Assembly (NCBI GenBank): GCA_050273025.1
Contig: CP158635.1
Coordinates: forward strand, 12,090,001 to 12,154,000
Reading direction: 5' to 3'
DNA length: 64,000 nucleotides
From: Cenococcum geophilum
Lineage: Eukaryota
Below the pieces are notes generated by a model, which made no database searches, was not told the origin of the DNA, and was given only the letters and a program-made list of their open reading frames with translations. The position numbers and the translations under genes are program-made. This document shows, one piece after another, positions 1-64,000 of the stretch (positions within the stretch are counted from its first letter, which is position 1; each line of letters begins with the position of its first letter).

Positions 1-84
1 TTACAACACCTAGTAGGTGTTATAGTTAGGCCCTTCCTTAAAAACATACTCCCTTAGCCCGGAGAGCCTCTGCTACTACTGGGG

Positions 85-8400: not shown

Positions 8401-8875
8401 AGGGGGAGGAGGCTAGGGGGGCTTCTATCAACCGTAAAGTGGACTATAGGGTAAGGAGATTCTTAAAAGACTCCATATCTATAAAAGGTAAGGGGGAGAC
8501 GCGTAAGCGTGGCGTGGGTAAATAAAGCCACCAAACGCGTAAATATTAAAGGAGAAGAAGGAGAAGAGGGCTTTATATTATATAATTATAATTACAGTAG
8601 GCCTTTCTATATAAAATTAGAAGCCCTACGCGAGCTAGCGCGGGCACGAGGACAGGAGAGGGTTGGAAAATGGATTATTAAGGCGACGGTAAGGTCAAAG
8701 GCGCGCTAAGGCCCTCTATACTAACCTAGTACTAACCTAGGCCTCAAAAACGCGTCCGAAAAGTAGGGGCCACCACCAAAGGGGGGGGGTGATATTTGGA
8801 CGATATGTCGCGGACCTTGGGGGGTCGTGCGTAACCTGAGGTTATGCCAAGCCTAACCCGGACCTCCGATACCTA
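5408..8875 (-). mobile_element. Crypton-F copy 2, directly tandem to copy 1, RIP-inactivated
   Basis: Colinear with 1911-5407 (start GTTATAACCCGGG vs GTTACGACCCGGG). ATG at 8476 leads into ...KNTIRAYKLKQKEWEDWCVRLEGNIDGA*VTEDKLYLFLEQ (Crypton N-terminal region). Lacks the last ~30 bp of copy 1. Confidence 0.85.
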
Positions 8876-8940
8876 ATATTACTGAATAACTAATAGAATA
8901 CGTTATACGCGAGAGCACGGGGCTCTCCTATAGAGGCCCC

Positions 8941-10455
8941 TGCGGTAGGGTTTCGTGACATTTTAATTATTTTAAATATTAATACTAATATTAACTAGCT
9001 TATCCAAAACAATCAAACACGTTAGAATTCTCTTTTTATAGCTATTAGTCGCTTTCTAAATTACAAGCAATGTGTTAAACAATTCTGCGATACCTATATA
9101 CTATTAGCCGGCTTAAAGCCTCTATTAAACAATAATAAGCTCTAAGACCACTACTAAAAGGAGCTTAAACATCTATATAATTACCTTAAAATGTTTTACG
9201 GGGCTACTATTATAGTAGAAGGCAACGTAATAGGCCTTGCGGATCACTTTTAAACACTTAATTAGCTTCTAAATAAGCTTAATTCTATAAAGTAGAAGTT
9301 CTTAAAGCTTTTAGCTAAGAAGTAAAAGTACTACTATACTCGCTAGAAAGCTTAAAGCTATAAATATCTTATAGGTAGAGTAGAAGCTACTTAAGTAAAG
9401 TGCGAGAAGTATTACAAAAAGGCTAATAATACTAGGGTATACTACGTAGTAATTATACTTAACCTAACGCTTAAGATAAAGTAGTTTAAGTAGTAATAGG
9501 AGGACTTAACTAAGAAGCAGAAGTAGATCCTTATAGTTAAGAATCTAGTTAAGGAGCTCTGGCTCAAATATAAAGGCAAATATTCATTAAGCCTCTTAAA
9601 TTTACCTACCCTAAATCCTCTACTACCTCAGCCACAGTTAGTAAAGACGTATACCTCTACTTAGGCTTATAAACGCCTAAAAGTCTTATACCTAGTTTAG
9701 TCAATTAATCAACCCAATAAGGATAGCTTTAGATCCTACCTTAAAACGAACTGTAAGCCAGTTAGTAAAAACAAACAATTTAATATCTTATAATACTGGC
9801 TAAATCGCTATAAGAGCCAACCGGATTTAGCTCACTTTGCTCTTAATATACTTATGGTGCCTCCTATATTAGATAAATACAAGAGACTATTTAGTAGTTG
9901 TAAGATTCTACTTAAAGATCGTTAGTCTTAATTGCGAATAGATATAATTAAGGCGAATAAGTGTCTTCAGCACTCATACGGGCCTCCGCAAAAAGGAGCA
10001 TTTAATAATTAGGAGGTTAGAGAGGTAAAAGGAGAGCCCGCAGCTCCTTTTCTATCACCTATATAAGCCTCTACCGCTCGTAAGGCTGCAGAAGCTCTGC
10101 CTTAACCACCTAAGGTAGTTAGTAAGGCTTAGGGTAAGGGCCTTAAGGAAGAGTTTAACGCAATTAAAGGCTTTAAGGTAGAAGATATACTTAGCAATAA
10201 GGTAGAGGTTATTAAGAACGATAAGATTATAGAGGGAGACTCAAAGGGAGGTAGTAAGCAAATCTAACACCCTTTTTAGTAAGTTCAACTACATTCTACT
10301 CCTTAATTATAACACCAAACCCATGCCAAGACTTACTATATATAGTATATATCTACACTGGAGCGCCATGGCGATCCTAGCGGCAAATCGTCTTTTTAAT
10401 GGATGGCGTGGATTTGGCCTCAGATCCACGCCACGCCAATCCAACAAGATCACTG
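8941..10455 (+). mobile_element. hAT transposon 3' remnant with C-terminal dimerisation domain and terminal inverted repeat
   Basis: ~9790-9980 translates YWLNRYKSQPDLAHFALNILMVPPILDKYKRLFSSCKILLKDR..LRIDIIKANKCL (RIP'd hATC consensus). The element ends ...AACAAGATCACTG (CAGTG terminus). Confidence 0.8.
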
Positions 10456-28936: not shown

Positions 28937-31900
28937 TCACCTATGCGAGAATCCGACAAATCTGTCATATTCCCCCGGACTTATGCCTAGTTCGGAAAAT
29001 TCAGCCCCAACAATTTTTGATCTATGCTTCTTTCCTTTTTTCATATAGCGTGCAGCCATTTTAGGGTTACCAATGCGTTCGTAAACTTCGGATAGCGCAA
29101 ATGCGGTCCGACAGGATGCACCTGGGTGGCATTCACTAGAGCCGAGGATTTGAAGTGATTCATGGAAGAACTGGCTGATTATTGTCAGAAGTGCTCGAAT
29201 GAAATCATTTGGATAAATCTTACATAGACGACTTAGGATCGCCTCGTTTGCACATAAGGGTGCCAACTTTGTACAGGGTAAAGCCAGTATAATGATGATG
29301 TGGCATCACCTTTTGCCGGATAATGAAAGAGTCTTGAAATGCCTCAAAGGCCTGGTCTGTTCTACCCTGCTGATAGTAAATGGTGCCAAGGTAGAAGTGA
29401 AGTCTAGTACAAGTTAGTCAATAGTGAGGGGTCTAAGCAGAATAGATTTGCACTCACATTGCCATCTGAGCGCTGCATTTTCCTCGCAATTGCTGTACTG
29501 CAACCATAGACTCGAAGCAGAATTCTAGGGCCTCACCGAGTCGTTGCATTTGTATCAGGCAGATGCAGATGTTGCTCATATATATATCTCTGTTAGTCTC
29601 CATATCTTTTCGCTGAAGGAGTTCCAGCAAAATTGGATAAGCCTCTTCTGGACGACTTTCTGCCATCAGAGATACGGCTATGTTTCCGTCCGCAGCTGCA
29701 AGCCATTTGAGATCCTCCGGATTGCCCGGTCGCTTATTGTCCTCCCTAATTGCTTTGATCTTCAAATAAAGACCAAGTCCGCTATCAGGACTGACTCTCT
29801 CGAACATAATGGATGCTTGAACATTGTACAAATAGCTTGTCAGGTCTCGTACATACCATTCACTGAATCCTAGATGTTTGCTTGTTGTTAAGGATTCTTC
29901 ACAGAGCACTATAGCATCCTCAGCCATGCTAAACGCAATATTGTATTGGCCGCTTTCAAAAAGGAACCTAGTATGGCTATCAGACAGAAAGAGACAGGGC
30001 GCAATGTTTTATTCTTACCATGCACAACGAGTTACAATTTCACATAGCAGAATGGGATATCCCACCTCATCCTTATACCAACTATACGTCTCCAGAAGTG
30101 ATGATACTTGGCGGGAAAGCTCTTGGCAAATCTTCCAATTCTCATGCATTGGTTTGCCATCCTGTTGTTGAGGGAATTTCGCATTCAAAAGGAAGACTGT
30201 TCGGTTGAAAATCTCGGCTTTCCGTTCAGAATCCATGGACTGCGAGACGGCAATTCGGACAAGGCGGTGGCACGCAATTCGGTCCTGTTCACGGTTTCTA
30301 TTAATCAATGAAATCCTAAGTAGCGCAGCAACAGATCTTTCAATTCTGTGAATTGTCGTATTCTATTAGTAAATAGTGGTATATATCAGGCTTAACACAC
30401 TCACATTGGGATATCTGTAAAAGGGTTCTGCAACAGGCTTTCGAGTCCAGGAATGTCGGTAGGAATGTCTGGGCCTTCATATAACCTTTTAGTTCGTCAA
30501 TAATGTGGGTTTTTTGGGTCCCGATTTATAGATTTGAAGAGTACTAACATATCATCTCGCTTAGCCGAAAATAGCGAAAGTGGAACCCCATCACCATCAA
30601 GGAATGCGAGCATTTGAATGAGTGACAAAGTGTCATTATCAAGGACAGACATACTTCCTGACGGCGATGTATTCATTGTCCAGGTCGTATTTATTGAATT
30701 CTGGTATGATTGTGTGTCCCACAAGCGTGTTGCCTCGTTGAACAGAAAATTCCGTTCGAAATGCCTATTTGTATCAAGGAATCGCCTTGAGGACATGCCG
30801 GTGGATGAAATATAACCCCCAACAAGGCTCAGAGCAAGAGGAAGGTTACCAACAGCCTGTGAAATTTTAGAAGCAGTTTCCCGGTCTTCTTCCGAACTAT
30901 ATCTGTTCTCATTATCCTGCAAAAGACTGAGAAGGAAGTTTTCGCCGTCATGCAATGAGAAGGGAAGTACTTCAATCCGTGCATGGACAGTTGCAAAATG
31001 GCGAGCAACGCCTGGGTTCCTCGATGTCATGATTATGGCACCTTTCGTAGCCCGCGGCCAATACCGTTCGAGTATCTTACAGTCCTGGATGTTGTCGTAA
31101 ATAATTAGCCATTTCACCACTCGATTAGGCGGTTCTGACACATAAATTAGCTTAATCGAGAGACATACACGGGGTGACGGACCTCTCTTGCTGGTCTTGA
31201 ATAGCCAATCTTTAAGCAGTTCGCGAGCTTGATCTGTGTTCTGATTTGAATCATCAACAATACCGATTTGCTGTCCAATAGACTTGAAAGAATCTGCCAG
31301 CTTCAGGGAAGATTCTGCGGTCACCCACAAGATTGCATCATAGCTGCTCACGAATCTGTAAGCGTACTCCAGGGCTATCTGAGTCTTGCCGCCACCTCCT
31401 AAGCCATGAAGGCCAGCTATTAAGAGCTTTTTCGGAATATTACCAGGATGCAGATGTTGCACAAGTCTCTGTAATTCCAAATCTCTTCCGTAGAAGGCTG
31501 GGTTTTGTATAGTAGGAAGATTTTGGAACGGTAGCCTGCCGAGCAACATCGTATCTTGCAGCTCCCGTCCAAATCTGTCTAGTCGCTGTAATAACTCCTG
31601 GTGTTGAACTTCTCTCTTTGTTTCCTTAGCATGCTCACAAGCAACACTCGCTTCTTGTTCCACCCACTCGATCAGTCGACGGAATCTCTGAAGTCTCGTA
31701 TTAATTGTCTCGCGAAGCGGCGTAAAAGATATACGGAGTATATTGCCTATCGGTTTAGCGTTGCTTAAACGGTGTTGGGGGCGAACGCTTACTTATCGTG
31801 CGTCGCCGGAAGAAACGAATTGAGTCTTGGAAGAAACCAATAAGCTCGGCAAAGAAATTAACCAAAGCTGCCTCTAACTGGCAAATGTCCTGAGAACCGA

Positions 31901-32401
31901 ACTTGGTGATGTAATAAAGGAACCTGGGGAGCGCGCGATCGATGCATTGGAATGCTTCAACAATCTGGTTAAGGCCATGGGCATGGCGTAAGGACAACTT
32001 ATGCGCTGTTAGCAGCCGCACGCTGCCTAACTCAAACCGTACGCCTTGACGGGTTATGGGGTAAGTTAACCCCGAAAGCCGCCGGAACGCGTTCGGGACA
32101 TCACCCCTACCTCCAAAACAAAGCAAATGGAACCCCAAACCAATGCAGAGACCGTAGGGTTGGACTGCAGGAAGACCTTCACAACTTCGGAAAAGGAGTG
32201 AATTGTTGTCAAAAAAGGATTGACTTGCTCAAGTCTCCGCGTAATTCTCCGTTCGCTGTAGCGTTTCTGCAACTCTTTTGCTCGTTCGAGCAGCGACTGC
32301 TGGCTTGTGACAGCCTCGATCTTCTGGATCTCCTCGGGTGTCAGCGAAGCTAGATACATTTCTAGCGCAGCCGCCCAAATTTGCTCGCGTTTGGTATTCA
32401 T
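28937..32401 (-). CDS. Fungal NLR (STAND): N-terminal helical domain, NB-ARC NTPase, TPR-like repeats; multi-exon
   Basis: N-terminal ..SALVWGSICFVLE; Walker A GLHGLGGGGKTQIALEYAY; Walker B WLIIYDNI; IMTSRN; GNLPLAL; HRLVR; helical TPR-like C-terminal exons. Confidence 0.88.
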
Positions 32402-32641
32402 TGGTAATCGCCGGGGCCGAATTTTCCACTGAGATCTTCCTAGCGTTAAGTTTAATGACTATATAGCTAACCCAAGCGAAAGAATCCCTCGGTTGCCCGT
32501 TGCCCATTGCCCAGCATGATATTTACCATTGGTTATTATTCTATCAGGCATAAGGCAAATGCAAAAGCTCAGAGTTAACGTGTCTCAATTTGTAGCGTTA
32601 AGAAGTTATGCCCCGTTAGCCTCACAACTCCATCATTGGAT

Positions 32642-39428: not shown

Positions 39429-40120
39429 ATGCTGCAATCTGGATCCAGTGCACCATACCTAAATAGGAATAATAGTTATCTATATAGGCTAGCCCGAAAT
39501 TTCGGACCTAATTGGCGCGAGCGTCCGCGCTGGTCCAAATAGACCACTGACGACAGACGACCCAGCATACCCCCTCGCTTTAATGAGGGCTAAACCCCTT
39601 TGAAGACGAAAGTTTTGATCTCGGTAGATTGTACGTTGGGTTTTCATGGTAACGTCGTATATGTCTTGCGCCTTTAAAATTCCTGTAATCCACAACATAT
39701 TCGGTAGGTTCGCCGTGATGATAACAACGCGTGGGGTAGGCGGCGAAGGCTGGCTCTAATTCGCCTCCGGAGAAGAGTTAATATTACCCATGTCAAACAA
39801 GATAAGGATTGGCAATCAAGAGCCTGGTAACATGAAAAAGATGATACCTGATATTGTCGTTCATGACTTGAAGTACGATTCCACTGCTGCCTTGTTTAAT
39901 CTGGTGATGAAACAGGTCCTCAGCCTCAGCCTCAGCCGATCGGCCGCATACCTAAGTACGGAGTTCGAGGATTGTTATGGTTCTTAACAATAAATGAAGC
40001 TACCAGAGTCGATAAATGAGATTTTATTAACCATTTCTAAACTCAAAGGTGAAACCTGTAACCCCCCAAAAAATTGAATGGCGCTAGAGTGATTTCGCCT
40101 TCACTTCAAGTTTCTTGATA

Positions 40121-40961
40121 TTAGATATTTAATTTAAGAGTAGCGCAATCATTTGCCCGCGACTCTTCTGAGGGATTGACACGGGTAATCTCCACATCCT
40201 TCAAGCTATCGTTGTTTTGACTGTCGTCCTCATCTTCACTCCCGTCTCCAAATATTGCATCCTTGCCCTTTCCTCGATAAGTACTATTACCCAACTTCAC
40301 CCGACCTGAACCCAAAAAAGACCTCTTCGTGACCTTGCGATATTGAACCCCAAATATCCTCTAACCGTCCGCTTTATACGTTTCAGACTGCGTGGTGGCC
40401 AAGCCGCGCTGAGTCCCGGTGCTGGCTGGAGGTTGTACACAGCCGGGAAGGTTCTGGCCGCTGTTGGTGCGTATAACGCTATTACGATTATGCCCTACTG
40501 TGAGCTGAGCATCTGTGAGTACCAGTGCTGCTAGGCCATGTACACGATGCCCCCGTTGCGACGCAATGACTCGATCAGCTCAGTCCGTATCTGATTGTGC
40601 TTCATCATTTGGTCGAACATATCGTAGAAGTTTTGTGCCTTGTGAACTATGGCATGTTGTGCGCGCATTTTGAAGTTTACCCCATTTTCTACCGTGCCTG
40701 ACCTTAAATATGTCAGACAGCTGTGCTTGAGCTTGCCATGCGCTAGAGTCATTCGCTTGGCTTTCAAAGTCTGATAAGGGAAGTTCGACAACTGGGAAAG
40801 TTAAGGCACCTAGTATAGCCGCAAGCTTTGTTCGATCTTTAGGAACAAACGAAGCCACAGGGTCATACGGATTTTGGACAAAGGCCCCAACGATTTGGCC
40901 AGGTCTTCTGAATATCCAGAGGCGGTCGAAGCAGAAGAAAGGTTCGGCTCTCAGAAGGCAT
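40121..40961 (-). pseudogene. Fungal gasdermin-like (RCD-1/HET-Q1-type) gene, disrupted by ~3 frameshifts and one nonsense codon
   Basis: Reconstructed ~280 aa: MPSESRTFLLLRPP../QIVGAFVQNPYDP../..GIVYMA/LAALVLTDAQL..YKADG*RIFGVQYRKV..AIFGDGSEDEDDS.. This matches remembered fungal gasdermin motifs (LGxxVxNPxDP, VYMxxGxxxxxDA, GERIFAVQYRKV, acidic tail). Confidence 0.65.
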
Positions 40962-41180
40962 CTTTGCGTAACGCAAGGGGAACACCAAATATGTGCAGCA
41001 AGTGTTGGGAGATGTAGATAATCATGCCATGGAGAAGGTTGATCAGCCTGGAATAAACTGGAGCCTCAGCTCCTCTTATTATGAGGATTCGTATTGGTTG
41101 GCCCTCTCTGCCAAGAGGAAACTGCTGCAGGTGCCCATGACTTTCCCGCTTCCGGCAGGACTCTCCTGGTTAAAAACCTT

Positions 41181-42291
41181 TCAAGAATGCCGGAAATATA
41201 GGAAAACGGGGCTCCTCCAGGAATAATTGGGTGAGCGACCTAAGTATTATCAGTTACCTGCTATTGTATAAAATGAAATAAATGATGTACTGACGATAGT
41301 CTTTCCGAACAACTTTATACACCGTCTTGTAGAGCACGCGAAGCAGGCCTGAGCCACCAACAATGAGAGGGAGTATTTGCCCCGTGTTCCCTAACGTATT
41401 GACACCTTGGATGTGATTCCATTTGATGATGAGCTCTATAGTTAAAATGAAAAGCGCAAGGTCTAGAGAAAAACTGGTATGTGTCAAGACTGTTTCGTGC
41501 TGTCCAGAGTGGCCCGTCGCTACACTCGTGTTTGAGGCAGTGTGTTCCTCGTGGAAAGCCAAAATCTTGCCCACAGCAGAAATTGCCCCATGCACACGCC
41601 AGAGGCGGGCAACACCAAGAGAGCTCTCCAGAATCAAGAAGCTGCTAACGATTCCTGAGAGGGTAAATATAACCTTTAAGAAGGCGCGATACCAATGATA
41701 AAGATCGACCGGCGCAAAGAAAAAAGCTGTTCGGCTACATGGTGGATGAGCCATATTATCCATACCAATGTAAACGAACCAGATCCCGTAGTAAATAGAT
41801 GCTGCTGCAATAAGAACCCGGACTATTTGGCCGATGCGTGAGGCTTTGTAATCCGCGAAAGTCGTAGGAACTCGTTCGCCCAAAGCCTGGTCGTCATCGC
41901 TGGCATTTCCAAGTCCGCGGCCAGAACATACGCCGCCTGTGCAGAGTAGTAAGACTATGAAAGCTTCTACGGCGTAGGTAGTCCCGCTATTCTGAGATGA
42001 GCCCCGTCCTAGGGTAATGTACATAAGACCAGCGAAAGTCGACAATTGAAAGCAGTTATTCACGCCGCGCATCATGGCAGCTTCTTCTGGAACAAAGTTG
42101 TTGGAGATAGACGTTGTAACCCACTGAAAATACACGCCAAGTCTTATTCCCAGCCCATACATGTTATCGTCGCCTTTGAATCCGCATGGAGTCTCGATCA
42201 AGGGCTCTGAAGGAGAACAGGCGCCGAGGCTGATCATAAAAAATAAGGTAAAGAAAAATGCCAACAGCAGGGTGGGGGTGATTGTAGTCAT
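41181..42291 (-). CDS. Multi-pass membrane protein of a conserved fungal family (D.YGLGIR motif)
   Basis: Signal-like N-terminus, GDDNMYGLGIRLGVYFQW, several TM helices and IELIIKWNHI..GQILPL. A short last exon after an intron at ~41240-41295 is likely. Confidence 0.75.
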
Positions 42292-42775
42292 GGTTAAGGT
42301 TCTAGCGTCTGAAGTTAAATCTAGGAGTATTGAGATGGAGGTAGTAGAAACGCGAAGAATCATTTACCTTCAGCCTTTCCAAGTTGCGCGTTCGAACACG
42401 TGATACCAGCCACAGCCAGGCTCCTAGGCACTGCCTCCATCAGTATCTTCCATTATGTTACTTTGCCACTAACAAATCTGTAATGAGACTAAGTACACAG
42501 CACTGAAGACAGGGCGCTTCCACATTGAACCCTCGAAAACTCCAAGACTAATAAGCGAGATTTTCTCTTTTGGGTCGACCAGCATGACCATTGTTCGACA
42601 GGTCATAGCGAACCACATGAGCTGTGACCGACGCGTCTGAAACGTTTAGCACGCGCAGTTTTCTCACCTCACCCTTCCCCTCTTTTAAATTCCCAAGCCT
42701 CTCTCGTGGAACCTTTCCTAAACAATTATCCTAGCCGCCGGCCTTGCAAAACTCTTCATCAGCCAACAGGAAGCA

Positions 42776-49057: not shown

Positions 49058-50559
49058 TGTATATATATGTACTCTTCTCTGCATAGGAAATAGCGACATG
49101 TACAAGTACAATACTCTCGCTCGACCCCTATGTTCTCGGACCTCGTAAATGTAATTCCCAATCTCTAGAAGATAAACTCTACCGTTGCCTTTTCTACAAA
49201 GTAAACCAAAGCTCAGATCATTTCCTGCAATCGAGCTTACCAGCAGAATGCAAATTTCCTTCTTTAATAATTGTAGTCCAGCCTAGCTAGGCTAACTATA
49301 AACCTACGGGGCCGCCGTGTCCAAGAGGGTACAGGCCAGTGCTGGGTGTGGGGGGACTAGGGTTCATGATATATAGAGATTTTCGGTGACTGTTTCGTCC
49401 AGTAAATAGGCAGTTCCAACCTGTCCCATTACTAAATTCAAACCCTAAGTTCACCGGAATAATATGTTATGATATCTCGCCACAAAATTGCCTTGTAGAG
49501 CCGTAAGGAATTGTATTAGCTATAAGAAGGGTATAGATCCTGGAAGGATGCTCTTCTTAGGACAATGTCTCGCGTAATATCAGCCGCTATATATGTTTTA
49601 CGAATGGTTAACTGTCACCAATGCCCATGCAAGGGAGCAGTTTCTCGAAGCTGCTGTGTGGCATTCGATCGGCACAAAAACCAAAGGCTTCATGTCGGGT
49701 ATCTGGAGGCCCAAGCCAAAGGAATGGGAGGAAATTGCGAATAGGTCAAAGGCGCTGTGAAATCCTATTATGGTTTTGAGTGCGTTGGAATAGTTCCAAA
49801 GTCTCAGTATTTCTCCCGATGAATCCGTGGCGCGGCAACATATTGTGAGGCCTACTAAATTTATTTTTAACAACAATAGTTAGCCAAGATCATTGCAGAA
49901 ACAAGGAAAGTATTAGCGCATAGGATAAGATAGTCTTCTTCTTTACCGCAGTAACTCTGTGTCCTGGGACACTGGTATCCATTTTCGGGTGGTTTACTCT
50001 GTTTTAAGCAGCGCTTGTCCCATGCGCTAAGCCCTAAGCAATATATCTCCCCCATTAAAACCTTTAACCTTATATATTTCTATATTTAATTACCTATTAC
50101 TAGTATAGCCCTATATTCCTAATTCTGAAAATGGGCTATCTATTATCCTACTAAATTATAATTAGTGCTTCACCTATTATATAGGATATATCTAGTAAAA
50201 GGGCTAAAGTAGTAAAGAAAAATCATTTACCTTTAATAATAAATAATATAAATAAGATTTTAATTTAATAGACAAGGTAAAGGTCTTTTAATTTAAAATA
50301 AAATTCTATAGCTTACTCTTTAGATTCTATAAGAATATTAAAAAATATCCTATTTAACTTATTAGAAATACCTTAAATAATAATATAAAGCTTTTTTTTT
50401 TTTAAATAAATTTTAGATAATTATTTATTATAGAAAAAGTTTAGTATTTTTTGGAAATTTAAATATTAAAGGTAACTGTATAATTACAGCAGCTGGTATA
50501 CCAAACGCGTATCTACGCGTTTGGTGTACCAACTACTCGCTTATAACTAATTAGGGGGG

Positions 50560-53500
50560 AGGGCGCGTTAGTATATAGACTACGTAGTCTACCTCAATAG
50601 AATTAAAAAGTCACCACCATCTAAAAGAGCATACGATACTATACGTATTTTGTGCCCCTGGATATAACTTACTTATATTATTAAGTTGATACAAATACTG
50701 ATTAGTGAGCGCGCATAGATCAGCAATTACTTGATACCTCCCCTGAGCGATACACGACAGCGACTACCCGTTTAATCCTAGTACGACCTACTAGAAGGTC
50801 GGAAGTTGGGGATTACGGACTATATCACCATCTCTATATACTTATTTAAGTCTTAGTACGGTTTACTAGAAGTTTATAAACGCGAATATAGACCTTTATG
50901 GAACCTCTTACCCTCCTATAAACTATTATGGACCTATTAATTGCCTTTACGGACCGTTATAAGACTTTATAGAACCCCCTGCCCTCCTATAAACTATTAC
51001 GGACCTATTAATTGCCTTTATAGACCATTATAAGACCTCTTAAACTATTACGGACCCGTTAATTGATTTTACGGACCGTTATAAGACCTCCTCTACCCGC
51101 TATAAGCTACTACTACCCGTTATAGCTTATATAGATATACTACGCTATATAATATAGTAGATATAAGCAAGCAAATTAATAAAGGTTAAAAGAAGTGGAG
51201 TTAGGGAGTCGACCTTACGTCTATAAACGGCGTTAATAACTATATTAATTTTAAAATCCTTAAATACGGACACTTTAAGCTTCTAAATAATAATCTATGG
51301 GAATAATATAAGGAAGACTTTGCGGACTTTACGGAAGCTATCTTTAAGACTTATAACCTTATAGCTACCTATAACCTATAAACCCTTCTACACAACTAAG
51401 GTGTATAGGTTAAAAAGGATAGGTAAGTTACTATTGCATGGTCTCTGTACAATATATTATATAAGGAGGACTAAACGGACTAGACTAAAGAGTAGATCCT
51501 AGACTATATTAAAACTAGTAAACTCTTTACCTTTTTTAAACTTAATAGGATCTTTAGTCTTATTAATAACCTATTTAACTAAATTCGTCCTATAGACTAA
51601 AGAGATCTTAAAATTAATCTTATAGGCTAAAGTATACCTAGTACCTAAGTTATAGACTATAATACCCCCGTAAACCAAAATATGGACTAAAACCCTTCTA
51701 TTACTTAAGTTATAGATCCGTAAACTACCTAAGTAAAGACCTATAGTAAGGAGCTAGCTAACCTAGCTAAGCTCTATACTAACAAATCTAAGTATAGCGG
51801 TGAAAACGATAATTTTAACTTTAAACTAACTATTTTTACGGACCTTTGCTAGAAGGCTGATATTCCTAAATAGGAGTTTAGCTAAGCCTACTCTACTATA
51901 CTACGTGGCCTAGCCCTTAACTACTATTATACTAACCTTAAGAGTAAACCCCTTAGTGCTCCCTTTAATAAGCTATGCGAGGCTATATATAACTACTTTA
52001 AAGGGCCAGAATATAAGCGTAATATTCTTACCTAATAGAATGTAATTAAGTTATAGATTATAATTGACAAGAATACCGAAAAATTGACTATAGAGTGCCT
52101 GTAAATTCTTATTAAAGACCTTTAATACCTATAGCACGGCCTTAATATTAAGCTTTAAATAGACGACTTTCTATATAATAAACTTATTACAGCTTACCAG
52201 GAAGTAAAGCCCTGTAAGTACGCCTATTATAAGCCTATAGACACCTTAACTGGCCTTATTCACGATTTATGGTCCTTTATTATAATATACAAAGTTTTAA
52301 ACCCGCTAGGTAGTACTTAAGCCTTTATTATAGACCTATAAAACCTATAAACTAACTTAGATGCCTACTTTACGGACCGCCGCTATTGCTAGCAGTACCT
52401 ATACTAACTAAGTCCTACCTATAACCCCCGTAGTAACTTCTATATAAAAGCATACCCCTATAAACGAACTAGCTAGAAGTGCTTTATATGCAGTAAGAAA
52501 GAATATTAGTTTATAAGGTATACCTAGGAAGAACATAATAAGTCTAAGAAGAGATTTAATAATTGGATTAATTAGTTTATTTTAGACTATAAAGGAAAGG
52601 AAGTAAAGGAGTCTCTTAACGAGTTAATGGAAGCCCTTATAATTAACTTTAACTTAAATACTTAGGAATAGGAGACCTTAGAGATGTTCTTAACTACTTT
52701 TAGACCTTTTACGGATAGCTAAGCCTTTAATATTATAACCGTATTAGCTAACCGCTCCTTTATATACTTAATTGCACCTAAAAACTAGCCTATAAGTATA
52801 CCTATTAGACCTATTATAGACGTTATAGACCGCGAATAGGACTTATTTGCATATATTACTATAGAATGCTATACCCCTAAAGAATTCTATAGCGTTATAA
52901 TTAATATAGGTGCCTCTAAGAAGTCTACTATAGGTTATAGATAATACCTTATATATAAGACCACTATAAATAATAATACGGATATTGATACTATGCAAAC
53001 TAGAGCTGTAAACGTCTAATTCGGCATCGGCTTAACTATATTAATTAGATTAGTTACAGCTAAGACTCTAATTGGCCTAGTTAACTTCTATATAGTAAAA
53101 GCAGATACCCCTTTTCTACTTTGCCTTATAGATATGGATAAGTTATAGGTTTACTATAACAATATTATAGACACCTTAATTAGCCCTGTAACTGCCCTAG
53201 GAAGTAAGTATATTACCTTACTAATTACGTGACGATTCGGACACCCATTCCTTATATAGGGAGAGACTTTATAGACCTATATTTAGGGATCTTTTAACTA
53301 TAACCCGTGCTACCTTACCAGTACTAAAATCTATCGCCTATACCGCTGTTTTGGCTACTTATTAGCCGAAAAGCTGTATAGAGTCCTTAAACGCTCTGGA
53401 CATGATGACGTTAATAGAAAGGTAATTAACTACCTAACTAAATACTGCTCCTTCTGCTAGAAATACGGACGTTCCCTATGCCGATTTAAGTTTACTCTTT

Positions 53501-54594
53501 ATAAAGACCTTAATTTTAACTACTTAGTATATATAGACATTATATACATTAATAGCAGCCTAGTATTATATATAATTGACGAGGTAACCCGCTATTAAGC
53601 CGCCCGTTGGTTATAAAACATATCTATAAAATATACTTAGGATATTTTACGGACCTGCTAGATTGATATATACGTTGGACCCCCTAAGTATATTACCTAT
53701 AACGCTAGTAGGAACTTTATTAGCAAGGAATTCTAATAGCATGCTATGGCTATAGCTATTTTAATAAAAGCCGTTCTAGTTAAGGCGTATTAGTCCATTA
53801 GGCTTATTAAGCAAGCTTACCTAGCTTTATAAAGAGCTTACTAGATTATTATGGACGAGTGTAAGGATATTTAAAAGGAACTAGCTTTATAGATAGCTGT
53901 AAAAGCTATTAATAATACCGCTGGCCCTAATGGACTAGTATTTACCCTCTTAGTTTATAGAGCCTACCTAAGGATAAGCAACCTAGGCCCTCTTACCCCG
54001 TCTATTATAGAACGAGTAGCTGTAATACGGAAAGTAATAGCCGAAATAGTTAAATTACGGGCTAAATAAGCTGTTAATAGCGCCCTATATTACTGTAACG
54101 GACCTAATACAACCTTAGTTTATAACCTCCTGCTTAATTCTAAAGTCCTTATATAGCGTAAGAGCGGCAATTAGACTGGACCTTATTGTTTACTAGCTGT
54201 AGAAGACGAAACGTGCTATATATAACTTTCTAGCAAACTAACTAGCTTTAGAAGCACGTCCATAAAACCCTATTTTTAGTTTAAAAATACCTATACTATT
54301 AAACTAGACGAACTAGAAGCACCTACTAAACTAGATAAACTAGAAGCACCTCTACCTACTCTAGAAGTCCCTTAAAAACCCACTAAACCTACTAAACCTG
54401 CTGTAAAGCATAGTTAAGGACGCCCCTAAAAGCACCATATAACTAAGAACCCTATAATAGAAAATCACTTAACCTTCGCAAGTATATTTATAAGGCAACC
54501 TCCGCCTATAGATATATTAGTTTTAGTATAGGAAAACCCTTTTACGGACTTAAGACGTAAAGAGATTAACGGACTACTTAAAAAGGGCGTCTTT
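50560..54594 (+). mobile_element. Ty1/Copia-type LTR retrotransposon, 5' part (gag, protease, integrase), RIP'd and interrupted at the start of RT
   Basis: KYSGENDNFNFKLTIFTDLC (gag), zinc knuckle KCFICSK, protease-like VIINIGAS (from IDTGAS) and integrase RNFISKEF. Ends KEINGLLKKGVF, so the order is IN before RT. The left boundary is approximate. Confidence 0.8.
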
Positions 54595-57500
54595 TATAAC
54601 GGAACCTTATAGCAAGAACTACGGTGGGCTCGTTAATAGGCTAGGTGTGTAGGAAATGCAAAGACAGTAGTTAACAACGTAATAACAACTAGTGGAGTGG
54701 TTGCCTAATAGATTAACTCCAATTATATTCTAAGAATTACTATAAGGAAGGAACTATCTAGGTAGGGACTAAGGGTCCTTAAATACACAACCGTACTCCT
54801 ATAAAATCCTTCTTATATGTGATATACGTCTTATATATAAGGTATATAAGTTCCTCTTATTCCTCTTATTTAATATGTAGCATATTATATAACCTTAGTT
54901 ACCATTCCTTATTATATAGTTCTACCGGTTCCATCTTAGACTGTGCCTAAATTAACTAACTAGCTTCTTCCAACTCCTCTCTTAGTAGTTATAATATTAT
55001 ACTTAAAGCGTCCGTAATACTATTTCCCTCCTCTTTATCTTTATCCTTAAAGATTTAAAACATCTCTAAGTTATTTACTAGAGGTATAATATCCGTCTAA
55101 TTAATTTAGTTAATATTGTTACTTATTATACCTAAAGCACTTTCTTCTTTATATGCCCAACGTCGTGCCCGCACTATTACTGCGATATTATTTCTTAGTG
55201 AGATTATACCGTCTCCGTATTCTTATTGTGCGAAAAAGGGGTTAGTTTATATTACATTAATAAGCCCTTCCTTATAATAACCATCCTCTTACTTAAAGTG
55301 TACTAAAGCGAATATTTGTTTGTTCTGTGACGTTCGCTTTACCTTTAATGCTAAATATACGCGACCTATTACTCTTAATAGTCGTCTAGTTCCCTAATTA
55401 ATTTGTCTTAGGGTCTTATATTTAATCTGCTGCTGCACGGCTAGATAGTAAACTATCTTAAGCCCTTACTAAGTTAGAATGTTCTTAAGATACGGAATAG
55501 AAGGCTCTAGATACTCGCATCGCGGCGTTTACTTAATTACTTCGCCTTAAAAAGGTCCGTAAGAAGGTTTGTTTTAAGGAGTGGAAACTTATAAAATAAG
55601 GTCTTTAGGAACTAGGTAATAAGAGAACTAACTTTCCTCTTATAGTAAAGGGAATAACTTTAAGTAGTTTGGCAGTCGCTCTTTCTAGGTCCCCCTTAGG
55701 TAACTTATTCTTTAATACTCCTTCCTTATTAATATTGCCTAACCTATTTTCTTTTAATACTCCTATACCTTTCCTATAGCGTTCTTTAAATTCTTTAGTA
55801 GTTCCTAGGTAGTCTTATTATAGCCTATCCACTTTACTTTATACTATATTTTATTATTAACATCCTTATAACTAACGATCTTTAAAACTTACTATTTATC
55901 CTTTTCTTATCCTTTATATGTGTCTGCTTTATAGACTGGTGGCTTAATATCTCTATATACTAGCTCTAGCATTGCAATATGCTATATAGGGTAGATTTTT
56001 ATTTTAGCTAGTAGGTTTAACTTAAATATAACTAGTAAAATCCTTTGCGTGATTTTAAAAGGTCCTAGTCTAACGTAGTCTAACTTTTTACTTAGTTGTT
56101 GACTCTTAAAATTTTTGTATAGTAGCTATACTTTATCTCCCTCCTTAAGATCTGGTCCCTTAGATCTCTTAGTATCATAGTACTTCTTTATTCTTTACTA
56201 TACTATCTTAGCTATTTCTATAAGGTTCGTATAAAGATTTATTAAAGTCTCTATCCTTTACTTAGCTCTACTACTCGTTTTCTTTACTTATTATAGCGAT
56301 AATAAGGTTCTTAGCTTATATCCGTAATTTATTTTAAATAGTAACATACCTATTCCTTCTTATGGTGTTGCATTATATATAAACTATATAATTAGTAATA
56401 GTAATACCTAATTGTTCTGTGTATGATTAATATAATGCCTTAGATACTGCTCTAGTGTCTAATTTAATCTTTCCGTTTGACCGTCTATCTGTGGATAATA
56501 TGCGGTAGAAGTTACTGCTCGAACTCCTTACTCTGCTAAGAATACTTCTTAGAATGCTGCTACGAATCTTAAATCTCTATCCGATATAATTTTGTTTAGT
56601 GCTCTATATCTTATAAACACTTCTTTAATATAGATTCTAGTAACATCTTCTGCTAAGATTTCTTCCGTATATGCTATAAAGTATCCCTACTTTATAAGCT
56701 TATCTACTATTACTAAAATTACGTTATAATCTTATTTAGTAATAGGATCTCTTAACTTTGGCAACTTAATAATAAAGTCCTATAATATAACCTCCTATAG
56801 TCTCTCTGGTATTTTAATAGGTTATAGCCCTCTATATGGCTTATACCTTATTAGTTTATTTCTTTAGCAATTTAAACACTCTTTAGTGACCTTCTTAGCT
56901 ATTCTTTAAATTCCGTCAATAATATACTCCTCCTAGAGTCTTAACACTAAGCTTATAGCTCTATTATATTCTTAAGTTAGTCCCTTATAGAAGTCTTCCA
57001 CGAACTCCTCTGCTATGCTTTTTAGGATATACCTTACTTCTTGGTTTTTGTATATCTCTATCTGTAGATCTTCTAGCTATACTTCTAGAATCCTTTATGC
57101 CTAAAAGCTTTCTAGTATCTTGTAGACTTTTTCTAATTCTTTCTCTTAAGTTGCTATAATCTTTAGATGATTATACCTAATTAATCTATCTATATCTTTT
57201 CGCAATAAAGCCTCTAATAGCTTTTTATTGTTTTATAGTTTAGCTTTTCTGCTTAGAGCATCTGCTCGTGTATTCTCTGTACCCTTAGTATACTAAATCT
57301 TAAAATAGTATTCTGCAAGTATCTCCGCCTATTTAACCTATCTTTAGTTAAGTTTCTTTATTATTAGGAATCCCGTTAGGTTTTTATAATCCGTTTTAAC
57401 TATAAATAGTTTCTCTATACCTTATAAGAATGCTCTTTATTCCTTTAGTACTATAACTATTCCTAGTAACTCCTTATTATAGATATTATAGTTTAGTTCT

Positions 57501-57951
57501 GGTAGTATTATCTTCCGACTATAGTATACCACTAGGTGCCATCTATCTGGATGCTTTTATATAAAATATGCTCCTAGTATAAAGTCTAATATATCTATTT
57601 CTACAACTGTCTTTAGTCCTAGTTAATAGATCTTAAGAACTGGCTCCTAGGTAAACAATTCTTTAATCTTCCTAAAGAGTTCCTACTATTTCTCTCTCTA
57701 TACCTATAGTTCTTCTTTTTTTATTAATCTTATAAACGGCTTAATGTCCTTTAACTATTAAGCTATAAACCTTCTACAGTAATTGCAGAACCCTAGAAAT
57801 GACCTTAGCTACATTACATTTTCTGGTTCTTACCAATTTACTATAGCCTTAATTTTCTTTAGATCTATGCTAAGTTAGCCTGGTTTAATAATAAATCTAA
57901 CAAAATTGGTCTTCCTAGTGAAGAACTTGTATTTCTTAATTACTACCAGCA
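54595..57951 (-). mobile_element. Ty3/Gypsy retrotransposon 3' half (RT end, RNase H, integrase, 3' LTR 54595-55019) nested in the Copia
   Basis: LTR TATAACGG...CCGTAATA (RIP'd TG..CA) with a purine tract on the minus strand at ~55020-55035. Minus-strand SFLGFCNYCRRFI, KELLGIV, NTRADALSR and YYPQIDGQTER motifs. Confidence 0.85.
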
Positions 57952-60093
57952 TATCACGAAGTGAGTATAAGCGACGATAATATATAGTAAGGTAGATATT
58001 ATTAAGCTATATACATAAACTGTATAAGGAGGTCAAGACGTTACGTAAGGAAAGAAGGTAGGAAAACGGGAAGAAAGGGCATATATTGTTAACTTAGTTG
58101 CTTAGTTAACACGTGCATAGGCAAAATAGGGTTTAGGTCGTGGTCCTAGCAGAACTTAACAGAATTTGGTAGAACTTAGCAGAATATAGCAGAATGCCGT
58201 AAATTGCCGTTAGATTGCTATTAGATTGCCATTAAATTGCCATTTCACGGTTAGTCTCTAATTGCTAAGTTGGTAGAAATAGGTAAACGTATATAAGGTA
58301 TTACGGGGGTATCCCGTAACAGTACCCCCCCTTTAAACTTAAGCTTCTGCGAGATAGGGCTGTAGTAGTTCTAGGTAAAGTTTGTAAAAGTCTTCTGCGG
58401 CTTATATAAGTCCTATAGAGTTAACGGGTTCCTATAAGGACTTAGTAAAGCCTCTCCATTTTATAAGATATATATATTAGCGTTTTTATTTATTATACTT
58501 AATATTATTAATTCTTTTAATAAAGTACTCGTTCTTACTATCTACTTTAACTAGTAGGGGAGGGTCTTATATCTATCTAGGTAGGGCGTCTAATACGGGG
58601 GTAGTAGGGTGGAGGACTGACGTATAGAATATAGGGTAGATTTTAACTGTATTAGGGAGCTTTAGTTAGTAGGCATAAGGAGAGATAACCTTTTTAACCT
58701 TATAAGGGCCAGCGTTCTTCTAATTAAGTTTCTTAGTAGGTTATTTCGTATTTAGATTTCTTATATCTAGCCAAATAAAATCGCCAATTTAGTAGGCCGG
58801 TGCTGGGGTTTGTTTCTTATTCGCTGCGGCTTTATAGACAGATTAAGCTCATATTATCTTATTAGTAAGGAACTGTTATAGTTCCTCTATCTTCTTTATA
58901 AATTTATTTACTTCTACAACTTATAAGGCGTAATAAGTAGGGTAAGAAACATTACTAAAGGGTTTAAAACTTATTTGTGGGTGCTAGCCGTAATTAGCTA
59001 GAAACGGGGAGACTTTTATAGTTTCTAAGACGGAATTATTTATAGTAAACTCGGCGAATATAAGCCAGTTAATTTAGTTATCCTATAAATACGACGTGTA
59101 TATCTAAATATACTATTCCATTATAGTATTTACGCGTTCCGTTTGGCTATCCGTTTCTAGGTAATATATAGTAGACAATAGTGCTTTAATGCGGAGTTAA
59201 GTAGTTAGTTCTTTCTAGAATGCTAAGATAAACTAGCTGCCTTTATCGGAGATAATTATTTTAGGGAGTCCGTAGAGTTTCCATACGTAATCTAGAAATA
59301 GTTAGGTAATAGTAGGCGTTAATATATTAGGGCAGGCGATTAAGTGTCTTATTTTAGATAGTTGGTCTATAACTACCATAATATTTATACAGCCTCTACT
59401 ATTAGGAAGGTCAATAATAAAGTTAATTAAGATATCCTTCTATCTTTGGTTTAGAATAGGTAGTGGCTTTAAAAGACCGTTATATATCTTATACGAGGCT
59501 TTAGCTCATTAGTAGGTATAGTAGCTAGAGACGTACCTTCGTATTATATTATACATATTCGGCTAATAATACTCCTATTAGAGTAGTTCTAGGGTCTTTT
59601 CTTAGCCTAGGTGGCTAGTAATAGGTAGATTATATATATGTTTAAGGAGTTTAAGCTTAAGCTTATTATAATTAGGGATAACTAGACGGTTCTAGTAATA
59701 TAAGCGGTTTCCACAGGCTTCGCATTTACTTAAAAAAATCTTTTTAGAGCGTTTAATACCATCTTATATTAGCTTAAGCGTCTCTTAAATAAACTTGTTA
59801 TTTAAATATTCGTTAACTATAATCTATTTAATTAATTAATTAGTTATTTTAAGGACGTGTACCATAAGATCTTTAATGGGAGGGTTAAATAGTTTAGGGC
59901 GAAGCAGGGTCTGATTTTAGTAAGAGTGCGCTTCTTCTAGGGCTAGCGCGTCTTGCGAGCGTTAGGTTAGGGCATTAGGCTTCTAACCTTAGACGCCTAG
60001 GTAGTATATAATTAAGAATCGGAAACGAGATAGATATTCTAACCAGCGGGCCTAACGATAACTTAGCTGTTTTGTGGTTGTGAAGTACTATAG

Positions 60094-61560
60094 CTCTACG
60101 TAGCCGAAATAAGTGTCGGTTTGGGGCACGTGCGCACCCACCAAAATCATAGTTCACGATCACAATACCATAATACAGCCAAATCAATTCAATATCGAGT
60201 CATCTGCCCGTCAGCCCTAATGCACTCATGTAGGCGCTTCGTGTACCAGCTGTACATCTCTGCAATCTTCTCCTGATCCACTTGGTTCTCCTAAACATCT
60301 ATAAAACGCTCTAATGCTGTGTCCTCTTCCACGCGCTTTGAATGGAATTTCTTCTTAATAGGATGGGCTAAGGACTCTATAATTGATAGATCTAGTGATA
60401 AACCAGGCAATGTTAGAAGCTTTAAGTCCCATTCCTTTACCCAGGCTAAAGACTCCCTTGATTTATGCGCTGAATCTGCATCCTGGCATAAAGTAATTCC
60501 CTTAATATTAAACTTTAAAAGAAGCTATGGTAACACCTGCTTGGTATAGGCTTTTAAATTTATCTTACCCACCTGGTTATCCACCTTATATAAGAAGAAC
60601 TTTTTTTAGGTCCTGCTAATAACAATAAAGACATTAAACAGTTTAAGATACTTCTTCTCTTAGGCCTTCTCCTTTTCATCCTTTTTAGTAACCCCCTTCT
60701 TCCTATAAATATTCTGTGGTAAATAGCGGTAAAGATTACTACTTCTTCTCTTAATTCTATGGGTTTCTTCTACACCTAAACTAAAGTGATATTTATTATA
60801 AAAAGCAATATTATTCCAGTCTTTAGGATAGGGTCTTTTTTCTAGCTATAAATAGTACCAATTCTTTCTTCTATCTGCCTGCTCCTAGTTAAGCCACTTC
60901 TCTTCTTCTATCTTTGCATTAATATACCCTTTATCCTTTTTTATGGCTCTTTAAATTAGCTTATTTCCAAGAGGTTAGCAACCTGTTCTTTAAGTTGGAA
61001 CCATTAGAAGATCTTTATAATTTAGGGCCTTTTAAACAATAGTCTGCTATAGGGCTAATTTTGAGTCTTAATTGAGATTGGGGTCGTCTAAATACACGGC
61101 AATAGCGTGGGTATCTTCCTTTGTAAGAGCTCGATTTCTCCCTCTTATTTCTAGCCTAAAATTATATATAGTTCTGCATTGCTTTAAGGCCACAATACGT
61201 TGCTAAGAGTGCTCTATAATTCCAGTAGCCTGCTATATAATAGCCGGAGGAATGGCCTTGCCTAGTAATTGGCCAAAGATTTTGGCGTAGAGAACTCCTA
61301 TGCGTGGAGGAGTCTTTAGATGCTTATTTTCCCCAGCATTATAGTATAATTCTGGGGGTGGGGTAAAGTGTTTTGCCCGTATTTTTTAGGATGCAGGCTC
61401 CTTGGTAACTTGGGTTATAATTAGTAATTGCAGCGAACGAATTTGGGTGCGAAATGGTGGTGTTGTAAGGTTTGTTATGATTGTGAGGCATGCTCAGGGG
61501 GCTTTGTTTGGGTGGGGCGCGCACGTGCCCCAAACCGACACTTATTTCGGCTACGTAGAG
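60094..61560 (-). mobile_element. Tc1/mariner (IS630-Tc1, DDE) DNA transposon with ~40-bp TIRs, inserted in the Gypsy RNase H
   Basis: Perfect TIR CTCTACGTAGCCGAAATAAGTGTCGGTTTGGGGCACGTGCGC. Relic CDS ~61339-60189 has LCQDADSAHKS and LPGLSLDLSIIE (SPDLNPIE-like) and ends DGQMTRY*. Confidence 0.9.
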
Positions 61561-62938
61561 TATAGGTTCTTATAGTCGCTAAGGACCTTAATTAGAAATC
61601 CAGCGCCTTCTAGTTCGGGTCGCCATTGTTTAAAATACCTAATAATAGCTAACAATTCCTTATTATAGATCTCGTAGTTATATTTGGCTAGGCTTAGTTG
61701 TTTTAAGAAGTATACTATAGGGTGTAATACTCTATCCTTATTATATTGAGATAGGATGCCTCTAGTGACGTAGTTAGATAAGTCGGCTTCTATAATACTT
61801 ATTTAGTTTAGGTTAAAGTATTAGAGTACGGGCGTAGTAGTAAATATAACCTTTAGATAGGCAAAGGCCTTCTTATATTCCTTATTAAAGACAAAAACTT
61901 TATCCTTTTAGGTTAGAGCTATAAGGGGTAAAACCAGGGCGGAGAAGTTATTAATAAACTATTAGTAGAAATTAGCAAATCCTATAAAGGCTCTTACGTC
62001 CTTAATATTCTTAGGTTCTTACTAGTTTACAATTACTTCGACTTTCTTTAGGTCTATTTATATACCGTTTATAAAAATAAGGAGTTTAAGGTATAGGACT
62101 TCCGTTTTATAGAACTTATATTTATCTACATCTAATTATAGACCAGCTCTATATAGGGCTTATAGGATAAGGTTAACGTGTTTCCAATATTTGGTTAGGT
62201 TATTACTGTATATTAGGATATTATTAATATAAGCAGTATAGAAGATGTCTAGGTAGGGGCGTAGGGTGTTATTTATATAATATTAAAACGAACTTGGGGC
62301 GTTTATAAGGCCAAAGGGTGTTACTAAGTACTTAAATAGTCTATATTGGGTACGAAATGCAGTAAGCTATTTATCCCCTTTTATAATACGGAGACGGTTA
62401 AATATAGAGATAATATCAAGCTTTATGTAGTAATAAGCCTTACTTAGTTAGTTTAGTATCTCCTATATTAACGGGATTAGATATTAATTCTTAATAGTAA
62501 CGGCGTTAAGAGCTTAGTAGTCTATATAAAAGCATAGACCGCCGCCAGGTTTCTTAACGAAGATTACTAGTACGGCTATAGGTGATAAGCTTGCTCTAAT
62601 AAATCCTTTACTTAGGTTCTTATCTAAATACTTTTATAGTACTTAGAGTTCGTTTTAAGACATCCCATATAAGGGTCTAAATCTAGGCTACTTTCCTTCT
62701 TTAAGTACAATCTTATAGTTATACGATCGGTGTTCCGGTAGCTTATTAACTTCCTTTTATAAGAATGCCTCTAGGCGGTTATAGTACTCTACTAGTACCT
62801 TTATAGCAGGGTTGGTGTGCTTCTTTAGTGCTAAGGCCTTCTTAATATCAGCTATAGTAACAGTAAAGATCGTATATTTAGGTTTTTTAGCAAGTTACGC
62901 TAATGAAGTAGCTTTAATTATGCGGATATCTAGGGTAC

Positions 62939-63381
62939 TATAAGAGTATATATATTAGGTCCCGCCGCGCTTGCGACAAGTTCGCAAGCACTCTCAGTCT
63001 TTTTAGCCGTATGGTGACGTAGAGGCGGGCTACGTTACAATTGTGCTTGCGAACTTACCGGGGCTAGGTATTATAGGTTCGATCCCTAGCGGTTACTTCG
63101 CTCTAGTACAGTCTAACACATATCTATGCAATAAGGCGGGTTGGCTAAGTCCGATCGCTTATGTTACTGGGGACTAACTAATATAGTGATACTCTTGGCG
63201 TTTAATCCCTATGGCGCGAACAGGCGCATAGAGGAATCCCTGCGAGCGCTTAAGGACGAGCGCGTAGAGGAGAGGGCAATTGTAAGAGTATATATATTAG
63301 GTCCCGCCGCGCTTACAACAAGTTCGCAAGCACTCTCAGTCTTTTTGGCCGTATGGCGACGTGGAGGCGGGCCACGTTATA
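62939..63381 (+). mobile_element. TRIM (terminal-repeat retrotransposon in miniature): 101-bp LTRs, ~240-bp non-coding interior, 5-bp TSD GGTAC
   Basis: LTRs 62939-63039 and 63281-63381 (TGTAAG..GTTACA, partly RIP'd); GGTAC on both flanks; PPT AGAGGAGAGGG before LTR2. Confidence 0.88.
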
Positions 63382-64000
63382 GGTACCGAGCTCATTTGGC
63401 TCGTCCGTAGTTTCTTATTTAGGTTTAGGTTTAGTGTTAGGTACGGAGTTAGTGTCAGATTTAGGTTTAGGTTCTTTAAGTATTCTTTTTATTATAGAAT
63501 ACTAGTCCTTTTAGTAGTTTTATATGCTAAGCTTAAGTTTCTATTTAGTTTAGGGCGGTGTAGTGCTTAGTAATAACTTATAGAGCTTAGTAGAATTTTT
63601 AGATCCTTGGTGGGTGTTAGTAGAATTCTTATATTAGTAGAATTCGGTAGAAATCTTATATTAGTGGAATCTAGTAAATTCTTTAGATTTTGGTTCTAGG
63701 TCTAAGTAGTAAGTTATAAAGCACTTCTACTTATAACGGGAGGCGGTAAATAGAAGCTTAAGGTTATCCTAATTAATAATCACCTTATATAGCTTTATCT
63801 AGGGTTATTTAAGGATTACTAAGTAACCTAGGGTGGTAACGAAAAGCTTAATTAGTTCTTTATAGTTTAGGTATTAAAGTCTTAGGGTTACCACGTGGGT
63901 AATACGGCCTAAAATGGTGCGTTTACTATTAAATCTAAATACGTTAATATGCCGGTTAAGGGAAATTAGGGTAAAACTATTATCTTATATAAAGATCTTA

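Follow-up and report, generated by a model that had tools for sequence, protein, structure and literature searches.

A probable gasdermin-like pseudogene in Cenococcum geophilum, transcribed and broken by different lesions in two strains

The locus described in this study lies in a 64,000-nucleotide stretch of Cenococcum geophilum DNA (contig CP158635.1), referred to below as the window, and is very probably a pseudogene that is still transcribed and that belongs to a small, divergent subfamily of fungal gasdermin-like proteins. An uninterrupted reading frame is absent from the locus, which carries three frameshifts and one nonsense codon; in the strain represented by the window, translation from the ATG at 40961 ends after 32 codons. 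Whole relatives of the broken copy were found in the databases, the predicted structures of two of them match solved gasdermins best, and RNA data show that the locus is transcribed and that the gene has been inactivated differently in another strain.

Reading frame, lesions and relatives

The minus strand was translated in three frames and compared with database relatives, and the resulting pieces (A to E) are listed with the lesions between them in Table 1. When the relatives were aligned with the window by tblastn, all pieces mapped in the same order onto one protein. With the breaks bridged, the 199 codons at 40364-40961, the TAG codon and 79 further codons give 279, and translation and tblastn order together confirm the proposal of the preliminary description that one protein of about 280 aa starts at ATG 40961 and is split into frame pieces. 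Piece A is matched by residues 73-90 of P0010 (40961-40908, 61% identity) and by P0006 (40934-40896); piece C is matched by residues 99-143 of P0012 (40668-40534, E 9e-5) and is 84-92% identical to P0002 and P0009. Piece E contains the motif G-K-D-A-I-F-G-D at 40241-40267, a column that is conserved in the family alignment (A1).

Judged against the relatives, the window contains three frameshifts, two caused by an extra base and one by a missing base. In tblastn, P0006 reads without interruption across the first break, P0008, P0004 and P0013 read across the second, and P0002, P0004, P0008 and P0009 read across the third. About three single-base frameshifts had been predicted from the letters alone, and exactly three were found. 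The nonsense codon had been explained as a probable GAG>TAG change. Because P0002 and P0009 carry Gln at this place, the TAG at 40361-40363 most likely derives from CAG, not GAG.

Table 1. Features of the pseudogene and of its transcribed surroundings (positions in the window)
Feature	Position	Strand	Description and evidence
Gasdermin-like pseudogene, whole	40121-40961	minus	Ancestral ORF with 279 codons and a stop codon; supported by three-frame translation, tblastn and homology to P0005 and further relatives
Piece A, frame 1	40896-40961	minus	ATG at 40961 and N-terminal strand; tblastn
Lesion 1	40894-40896	minus	+1 shift, one extra base within a run of three identical bases
Piece B, frame 2	40697-40893	minus	Homology of the frame-2 read-through; tblastn
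Lesion 2	40695	minus	+1 shift, one extra base
Piece C, frame 3	40534-40694	minus	Helical region and beginning of the conserved core strand; tblastn
Lesion 3	between 40533 and 40534	minus	-1 shift, one base missing; brings TAG 40531-40533 into frame
Piece D, frame 2	40364-40533	minus	Core strand, then a loop of low model confidence (model segment 162-189, pLDDT <50)
Lesion 4	40361-40363	minus	In-frame TAG; Gln at the same place in P0002 and P0009, the closest relatives
Piece E, frame 2	40124-40360	minus	Last core strands, motif and acidic 42-aa tail
TAA stop of the ancestral ORF	40121-40123	minus	
Transcribed stretch	40010-41236	minus	RNA-library contigs, gapless, continuing into the upstream gene
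Upstream neighbour, 375-aa spliced ORF	41181-42363	minus	Joint in three contigs and two reads

The frame-2 read-through, which comprises pieces B, D and E and has X in place of its two stops, served as the query P0001 in an exhaustive phmmer search of 1,835,955,588 representative proteins, and 16 proteins were returned at E<=0.001. Seven of these, with lengths of 228-561 aa, are complete or almost complete relatives with 27-33% identity and a best E of 2e-26, namely P0005 (282 aa), P0012 (283 aa), P0014 (267 aa), P0010 (310 aa), P0017 (310 aa), P0015 (228 aa) and P0011 (561 aa). Residues 2-257 of the query align with residues 22-280 of P0005. An E of 2.1e-26 against this whole 282-aa protein, among 1.84 billion, puts the homology of the locus to the family far beyond chance by the measure of sequence similarity. 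Eight of the 16 are close relatives (59-100% identity), which are exclusively fragments of 65-162 aa. Some of these fragments come from contigs of 1.8-5 kb, where a contig end does not simply explain the truncation. This suggests, at the level of truncated ORF calls rather than of DNA, that the gene is broken in close relatives too.

Some of the matches have peculiarities of their own. In P0016, a protein of 2438 aa, 15 separate stretches match residues 117-206 of the query (E 1.3e-6); they may represent a repeat similar to the family's conserved strand pair, or low-complexity noise. Residues 54-82 of P0009 match the translated opposite strand (window 40333-40419, plus), an indication that this relative has either a small inversion or a chimeric assembly. 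The only named member is P0011, the hypothetical protein KAF2264119.1 of Lojkania (Didymosphaeria) enalia. Its residues 288-424 form a HET domain without the first 30 profile positions (PF06985, E 1.6e-19), and it is either a true gasdermin-HET fusion or the product of a gene model in which two neighbouring genes were merged. If the two parts are neighbours, the family may be paired with HET-domain genes rather than with proteases.

Alignment A1 has ten rows and is conserved in blocks along its whole length. These are the N-terminal strand, the motif L-G-R-F..N-P..P, the block Q-A-Q-L..G-I-F, the strand pair A-Y-M-A-V-A-T-L-x-L-x-D-A-E-L-T, which is very conserved, the strand K-I-F-G-I-x-Y-x-K-V and, ahead of the acidic tail, the motif G-x-x-x-V-Y-G-D. 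As aligned, the window pieces belong to a real protein family of about 280 aa.

Profile and sequence searches connected this family with no known gasdermin. The Pfam gasdermin models matched none of nine relatives at E<=1 and none of the five window pieces even at E<=10; an ATP11 match on the pieces (E 0.033) was below threshold and was dismissed as chance. PADLOC matched none of seven relatives. Against PDB sequences, including RCD-1, piece B, pieces D and E together and the A1 profile gave no gasdermin match at E<=10 and nothing but chance-level matches (E 0.57 or worse). A word-index protein search gave no match with piece B, returned only P0005 when P0005 itself was the query, and returned only P0005 and P0014 with A1. 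Since the relatives were recovered only by the exhaustive search, the word index is too coarse for this family. As no sequence-profile link was found, the gasdermin assignment rests on predicted structure. By the part of the literature consulted (PMC8851545), the link between fungal and animal gasdermins itself required HHpred, so a missing HMMER match does not exclude gasdermin membership.

Allelic decay and transcription

Four public runs (X8, X19, X5 and X21) were compared with the window over 39800-41400. Logan contigs of X8, X19 and X5 are the same as the window over 40031-41236, with no other letter and no gap; these are separate data sets from three other studies, though they may represent the same strain, and rare variants are lost in contigs. 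The lesions are real: since contigs from three other studies are identical to the window, neither the frameshifts nor the stop can be errors of a single assembly. The preliminary description had left room for a gene that is intact if the indels are assembly errors, and this is refuted by the same contigs. Sequencing or assembly errors in the source assembly have next to no probability as an explanation. The indel at 40894 does lie in a three-base homopolymer run, a classic context for such errors, but the contigs of the three runs agree with the window across all four lesions, all sampled 31-mers of the stretch of about 1 kb are present in 20 of the 24 listed public runs, and the TAG is a substitution, not an indel.

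The fourth run, X21, consists of raw stranded RNA reads from a strain that is 95-99% alike, and its allele has none of the three window frameshifts. The base at 40894 is absent from three of five reads, the base at 40695 is absent from all four reads, and an additional base follows 40533 in 39 of 41 reads; applied together, these differences restore one frame across all three breaks. The depth of X21 is below 1 at the TAG (40361-40363) and no read extends below 40340, and the comparison with this strain is one of the three frameshifts. X21 has lesions of its own, a 1-base deletion at 40797 and a G>A change at 40834 that turns an Arg codon into a stop (each in 12 of 12 reads). Both alleles are therefore dead through different mutations, and the gene has been inactivated independently at least twice. 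Since X21 lacks the window frameshifts yet has its own deletion and nonsense codon, decay has proceeded independently between lineages. Of the two alternatives that had been offered, the decayed gene is thus the right one, and the raw reads that had been proposed as a test of the indels revealed a second broken allele.

Over 40440-41137, X21 differs from the window at 25 listed positions and by 4 indels over about 1 kb, mostly by transitions. Between the two alleles pN/pS is 0.45 (9 non-synonymous changes, 1 nonsense change and 6 synonymous changes), which is too few changes to decide and by itself no demonstration of neutral evolution. X21 and X5 bear one species label, though X5 is identical to the window and X21 is divergent. 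Because X21 differs from X5 and the window at many positions, this one label covers clearly diverged lineages.

The locus is transcribed. RNA-library contigs cover it without a gap in X19 (40010-41236), X5 (40016-41236) and X8 (40031-41236). In the stranded reads of X21, the first mate is on the plus strand in all cases; in most stranded libraries, this corresponds to minus-strand RNA, and the pseudogene is read in sense on that strand. The upstream neighbour on the same strand has a 55-nt GT..AG intron at 41237-41291, whose cut is ambiguous by 3, and its stop (41181) lies about 220 nt before the pseudogene ATG. No Pfam family was found in its 375-aa ORF, which is rich in hydrophobic stretches and by eye resembles a multi-pass membrane protein.

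Transcription in sense agrees with the alternative that the full protein is still made, which would be so if the frame changes were introns or were overcome by recoding, such as programmed frameshifting or A-to-I editing of UAG, and editing of UAG stop codons is known from some sexual-stage genes of filamentous ascomycetes. This explanation is exceedingly improbable. No joint occurs inside 40010-41236 in any of the four runs, in which the neighbour intron is the only joint; the RNA-library contigs have the unchanged genomic sequence; the proteins of relatives cross each break and leave no room for an intron; and editing cannot undo three separate frameshifts of both signs. A persisting function could also reside in the RNA, if the pseudogene now belongs to the transcript of the upstream 375-aa gene as a long 3' UTR or by read-through, which would explain its transcription. 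The closeness of the upstream stop agrees with this, as do the contigs of X8, X19 and X5, which join the spliced upstream gene to the pseudogene down to 40010-40031, but a contig over two genes does not prove a single transcript. The depth of X21 is 0.6-1.2 at 41150-41311 against 8-13 over 40934-41095; this dip between the genes favours a separate transcript start of the pseudogene, with the caveat that the 95% identity filter could cause it. A function of this type is considered unlikely, and a transcribed pseudogene is the preferred reading of the locus.

The surroundings of the locus look fungal: there are introns of the spliceosomal GT..AG type, an NB-ARC/TPR gene is present, and AT-rich blocks are RIP-like. 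These blocks (1-10000 and 50001-64000; GC 0.30-0.41) have almost no ORFs of at least 90 aa and show RIP-type bias, with TpA/ApT of 1.6-1.9 and (CpA+TpG)/(ApC+GpT) of 0.40-0.56; between them, at 10-50 kb, lies a gene island whose composition is normal. RIP was rejected as the cause of decay at the pseudogene, where the two indices are 0.84 and 1.24, as in the surrounding genes. An NLR-like gene is located at 28940-32458 (minus), 8 kb from the pseudogene, and consists of six stop-to-stop ORFs in different frames without a protease domain. From its 5' end, it encodes DUF7708 (split over two ORFs at profile position 42), NB-ARC (E 1.7e-12), DUF7779 and TPR_12; its frame changes may be introns or further decay.

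Predicted fold and comparison with known gasdermins

Fold tests were carried out on AlphaFold models of the whole relatives P0005 and P0014, not on the broken window copy, which is tied to the modelled P0005 by sequence (E 2.1e-26). The P0005 model (AlphaFold2 on A1) has a pLDDT of 69.7 and a pTM of 0.70, with low-confidence loops at 162-189 and 220-249. In Foldseek against the PDB, all five of its matches at E<=0.001 are gasdermins, including the RCD-1 pore as the best match (2.1e-5), RCD-1-2 and the bacterial 7n50; the top 10 are all gasdermins, and the TM-scores are low (0.30-0.51). VIA-align gave Z 12.1 for RCD-1-2 (rmsd 3.2 A, 164 aligned residues), 11.7 for the RCD-1 pore and 10.6 for RCD-1-1, followed by bacterial gasdermins at 7.1-8.7, animal and placozoan gasdermins at 5.8-7.2 and cholesterol-dependent cytolysins at 5-6. 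In a wide search independent of Foldseek, gasdermins take the first eight places among 48,161 chains and account for all five chains with Z>=8.

The model of P0014, the most divergent whole member, has a pLDDT of 75.6. Its wide search also placed gasdermins in the top 8 of 48,161 chains, with RCD-1 at 11.8, 9.6 and 9.5. Both models are of middling confidence and were built on one shallow 10-row alignment, so they are not fully independent of each other. As a lead, ESM Atlas features agree: the nearest clusters comprise hypothetical proteins of 279-293 aa from Ascomycota, and Bact_GSDM clusters account for 9 of the 30 hits. The predicted structures show a gasdermin-type fold in the whole relatives. 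The gasdermin assignment, which had originally been made from motifs with a suggestion to compare an AlphaFold model with RCD-1 and bacterial gasdermins in Foldseek, is supported by these results; the comparison was run on two whole relatives, gasdermins rank first, and RCD-1 is at the top in every structure search.

RCD-1-1 and RCD-1-2 of Neurospora crassa (PDB 8jyx, 8jyy, 8jyz) are the best structural matches of both models. They resemble the present family in size (about 250-280 aa), in their fungal origin and in consisting of one pore-forming domain, with no large C-terminal repressor domain attached. They differ in sequence, with 8-10% identity in structural alignments and no HMMER match. 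RCD-1 is described, in the portion of PMC13475620 used here, as being activated by the pairing of two allelic forms without cleavage, whereas the conserved loop motif and the acidic tail of the family described here suggest cleavage. The window copy, in addition, is dead.

Bacterial gasdermins (PDB 7n50, 7n51, 7n52, 8sl0; Pfam PF26164 Bact_GSDM) match the fold at Z 7.0-8.7, and the alignment of full-length 7n50 with P0005 extends to model residue 277, tail included. They belong to another kingdom and to phage-defence operons with caspase-like proteases, and their Pfam and PADLOC models do not match the family.

HET-Q1 of Podospora anserina was compared by its published description, and no solved HET-Q1 structure was among the fold-search matches (Foldseek 'pdb' library up to April 2026). 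PMC13475620 names 9UV9 as its solved pore. According to the excerpts of PMC13475620 and PMC8851545 on which this comparison draws, HET-Q1 has 278 aa and is cut by HET-Q2 at F238-A239 to release a 40-aa inhibitory peptide, and the peptides of HET-Q1-like members have 38-43 residues. The ancestral product of the locus has a similar length of about 279 aa and a putative tail of about 42 aa; the aromatic residue 238, after which HET-Q1 is cut, has its counterpart in a conserved Phe/Tyr-Gly at about 237, and the described conserved blocks of HET-Q1 near 148-155 and 210-217 coincide with the two most conserved strands of the family. Because length, position and residue type match, the same activation logic as in HET-Q1 is suggested. 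HET-Q1-type genes mostly adjoin a gene for an S8 or CHAT protease, whereas the search of the window yielded none. Unpaired members, marked 'n/f', also occur in the published list of het-Q1 homologues (PMC8851545, supplement file 1); P0011 is missing from this list, though three other genes of the same strain are present.

Proposed mechanism and significance

The ancestral product would have been a protein of about 279 aa in which a gasdermin-type pore-forming domain (about 1-215) is followed by a flexible loop and then by an acidic tail at the C-terminus. The loop would carry the motif Gly-Lys-Asp-Ala-(Ile/Val)-(Phe/Tyr)-Gly-Asp near residue 237. In P0005, the low-confidence loop at 220-249 holds Y237-G238, and the ancestral frame of the window has Phe-Gly at about 237-238. 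The tail, which has 45 aa in P0005 and 42 aa in the window copy, consists of short strands and helices and is placed against the core in the models. By position and layout, a cleavable tail like that of HET-Q1 is plausible. By analogy with HET-Q1 and bacterial gasdermins, a protease cut in the loop would release the tail, after which the freed domain would assemble into oligomeric membrane pores that kill the cell, for instance during allorecognition or defence. Pore formation, cleavage-dependent activation and a part in cell death are all inferred from known gasdermins. The gene of the window strain cannot make this protein, given two 1-base insertions, one 1-base deletion and the CAG>TAG change; as the two strains have distinct lesion sets, constraint on the gene has been lost in this lineage.

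A partner protease was searched for in the window. Peptidase_S8 and CHAT domains were found in none of 91 of the 92 stop-to-stop ORFs of at least 90 aa, the 92nd being that of the pseudogene itself, and in none of the 44 ORFs of 40-89 aa within 35.9-40.1 kb; a search of this type could miss an intron-rich or decayed gene. The NB-ARC/TPR gene was considered as a partner and rejected, because it lacks a protease domain and does not adjoin the pseudogene, from which a beta-lactamase-family gene separates it. It is a matter of speculation whether loss of the partner protease caused the gene to decay.

The family might merely share the beta-sheet architecture of gasdermins and work differently, for example as an RCD-1-style system of allelic partners, or might contain no cell-death protein at all. 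The lack of a sequence-level gasdermin link and of a protease neighbour in the window agrees with such an explanation, and the best structural matches are those of RCD-1, which by the same portion of PMC13475620 is activated by heterodimer formation rather than by cleavage. However, RCD-1 reaches Z 10-12 over 154-192 aligned residues, compared with at most 6.4 for non-gasdermin chains, and the conserved loop motif and the tail of HET-Q1-like length and position fit control by cleavage. A shared architecture without this control is therefore rather improbable, and a gasdermin-like family with a putative cleavable tail is the reading preferred here. A more far-reaching proposal is held only tentatively and is somewhat doubtful: that the family is an unrecognised, very sparsely sampled clade of fungal gasdermins whose gene is being lost in parallel by different mutations in strains of one species group, possibly after loss of the protease, and is still transcribed.

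In sum, this study describes a family that has no Pfam model, 16 detectable sequences among 1.84 billion and one named member outside the published het-Q1 census. Fungal gasdermins connect fungal allorecognition, animal pyroptosis and bacterial phage defence, and the known set of them would be incomplete, as this family goes unrecognised by Pfam, by PADLOC and by HMMER against solved structures and is not covered by the het-Q1 census. In annotation, the locus should be treated as a pseudogene and not as four small ORFs, as some public calls evidently do (P0003, fragments P0002-P0013). If the proposed reading is true, P0005, P0012 and P0014 are whole relatives in which a gasdermin lineage with a conserved aromatic-Gly cleavage loop can be tested. 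The locus would then illustrate how a cell-death executioner is dismantled in nature, and the snapshot of gene death that it offers, in which two strains have allele-specific lesions, transcription persists and a RIP signature is absent, may serve the question of how and why such executioners are lost.
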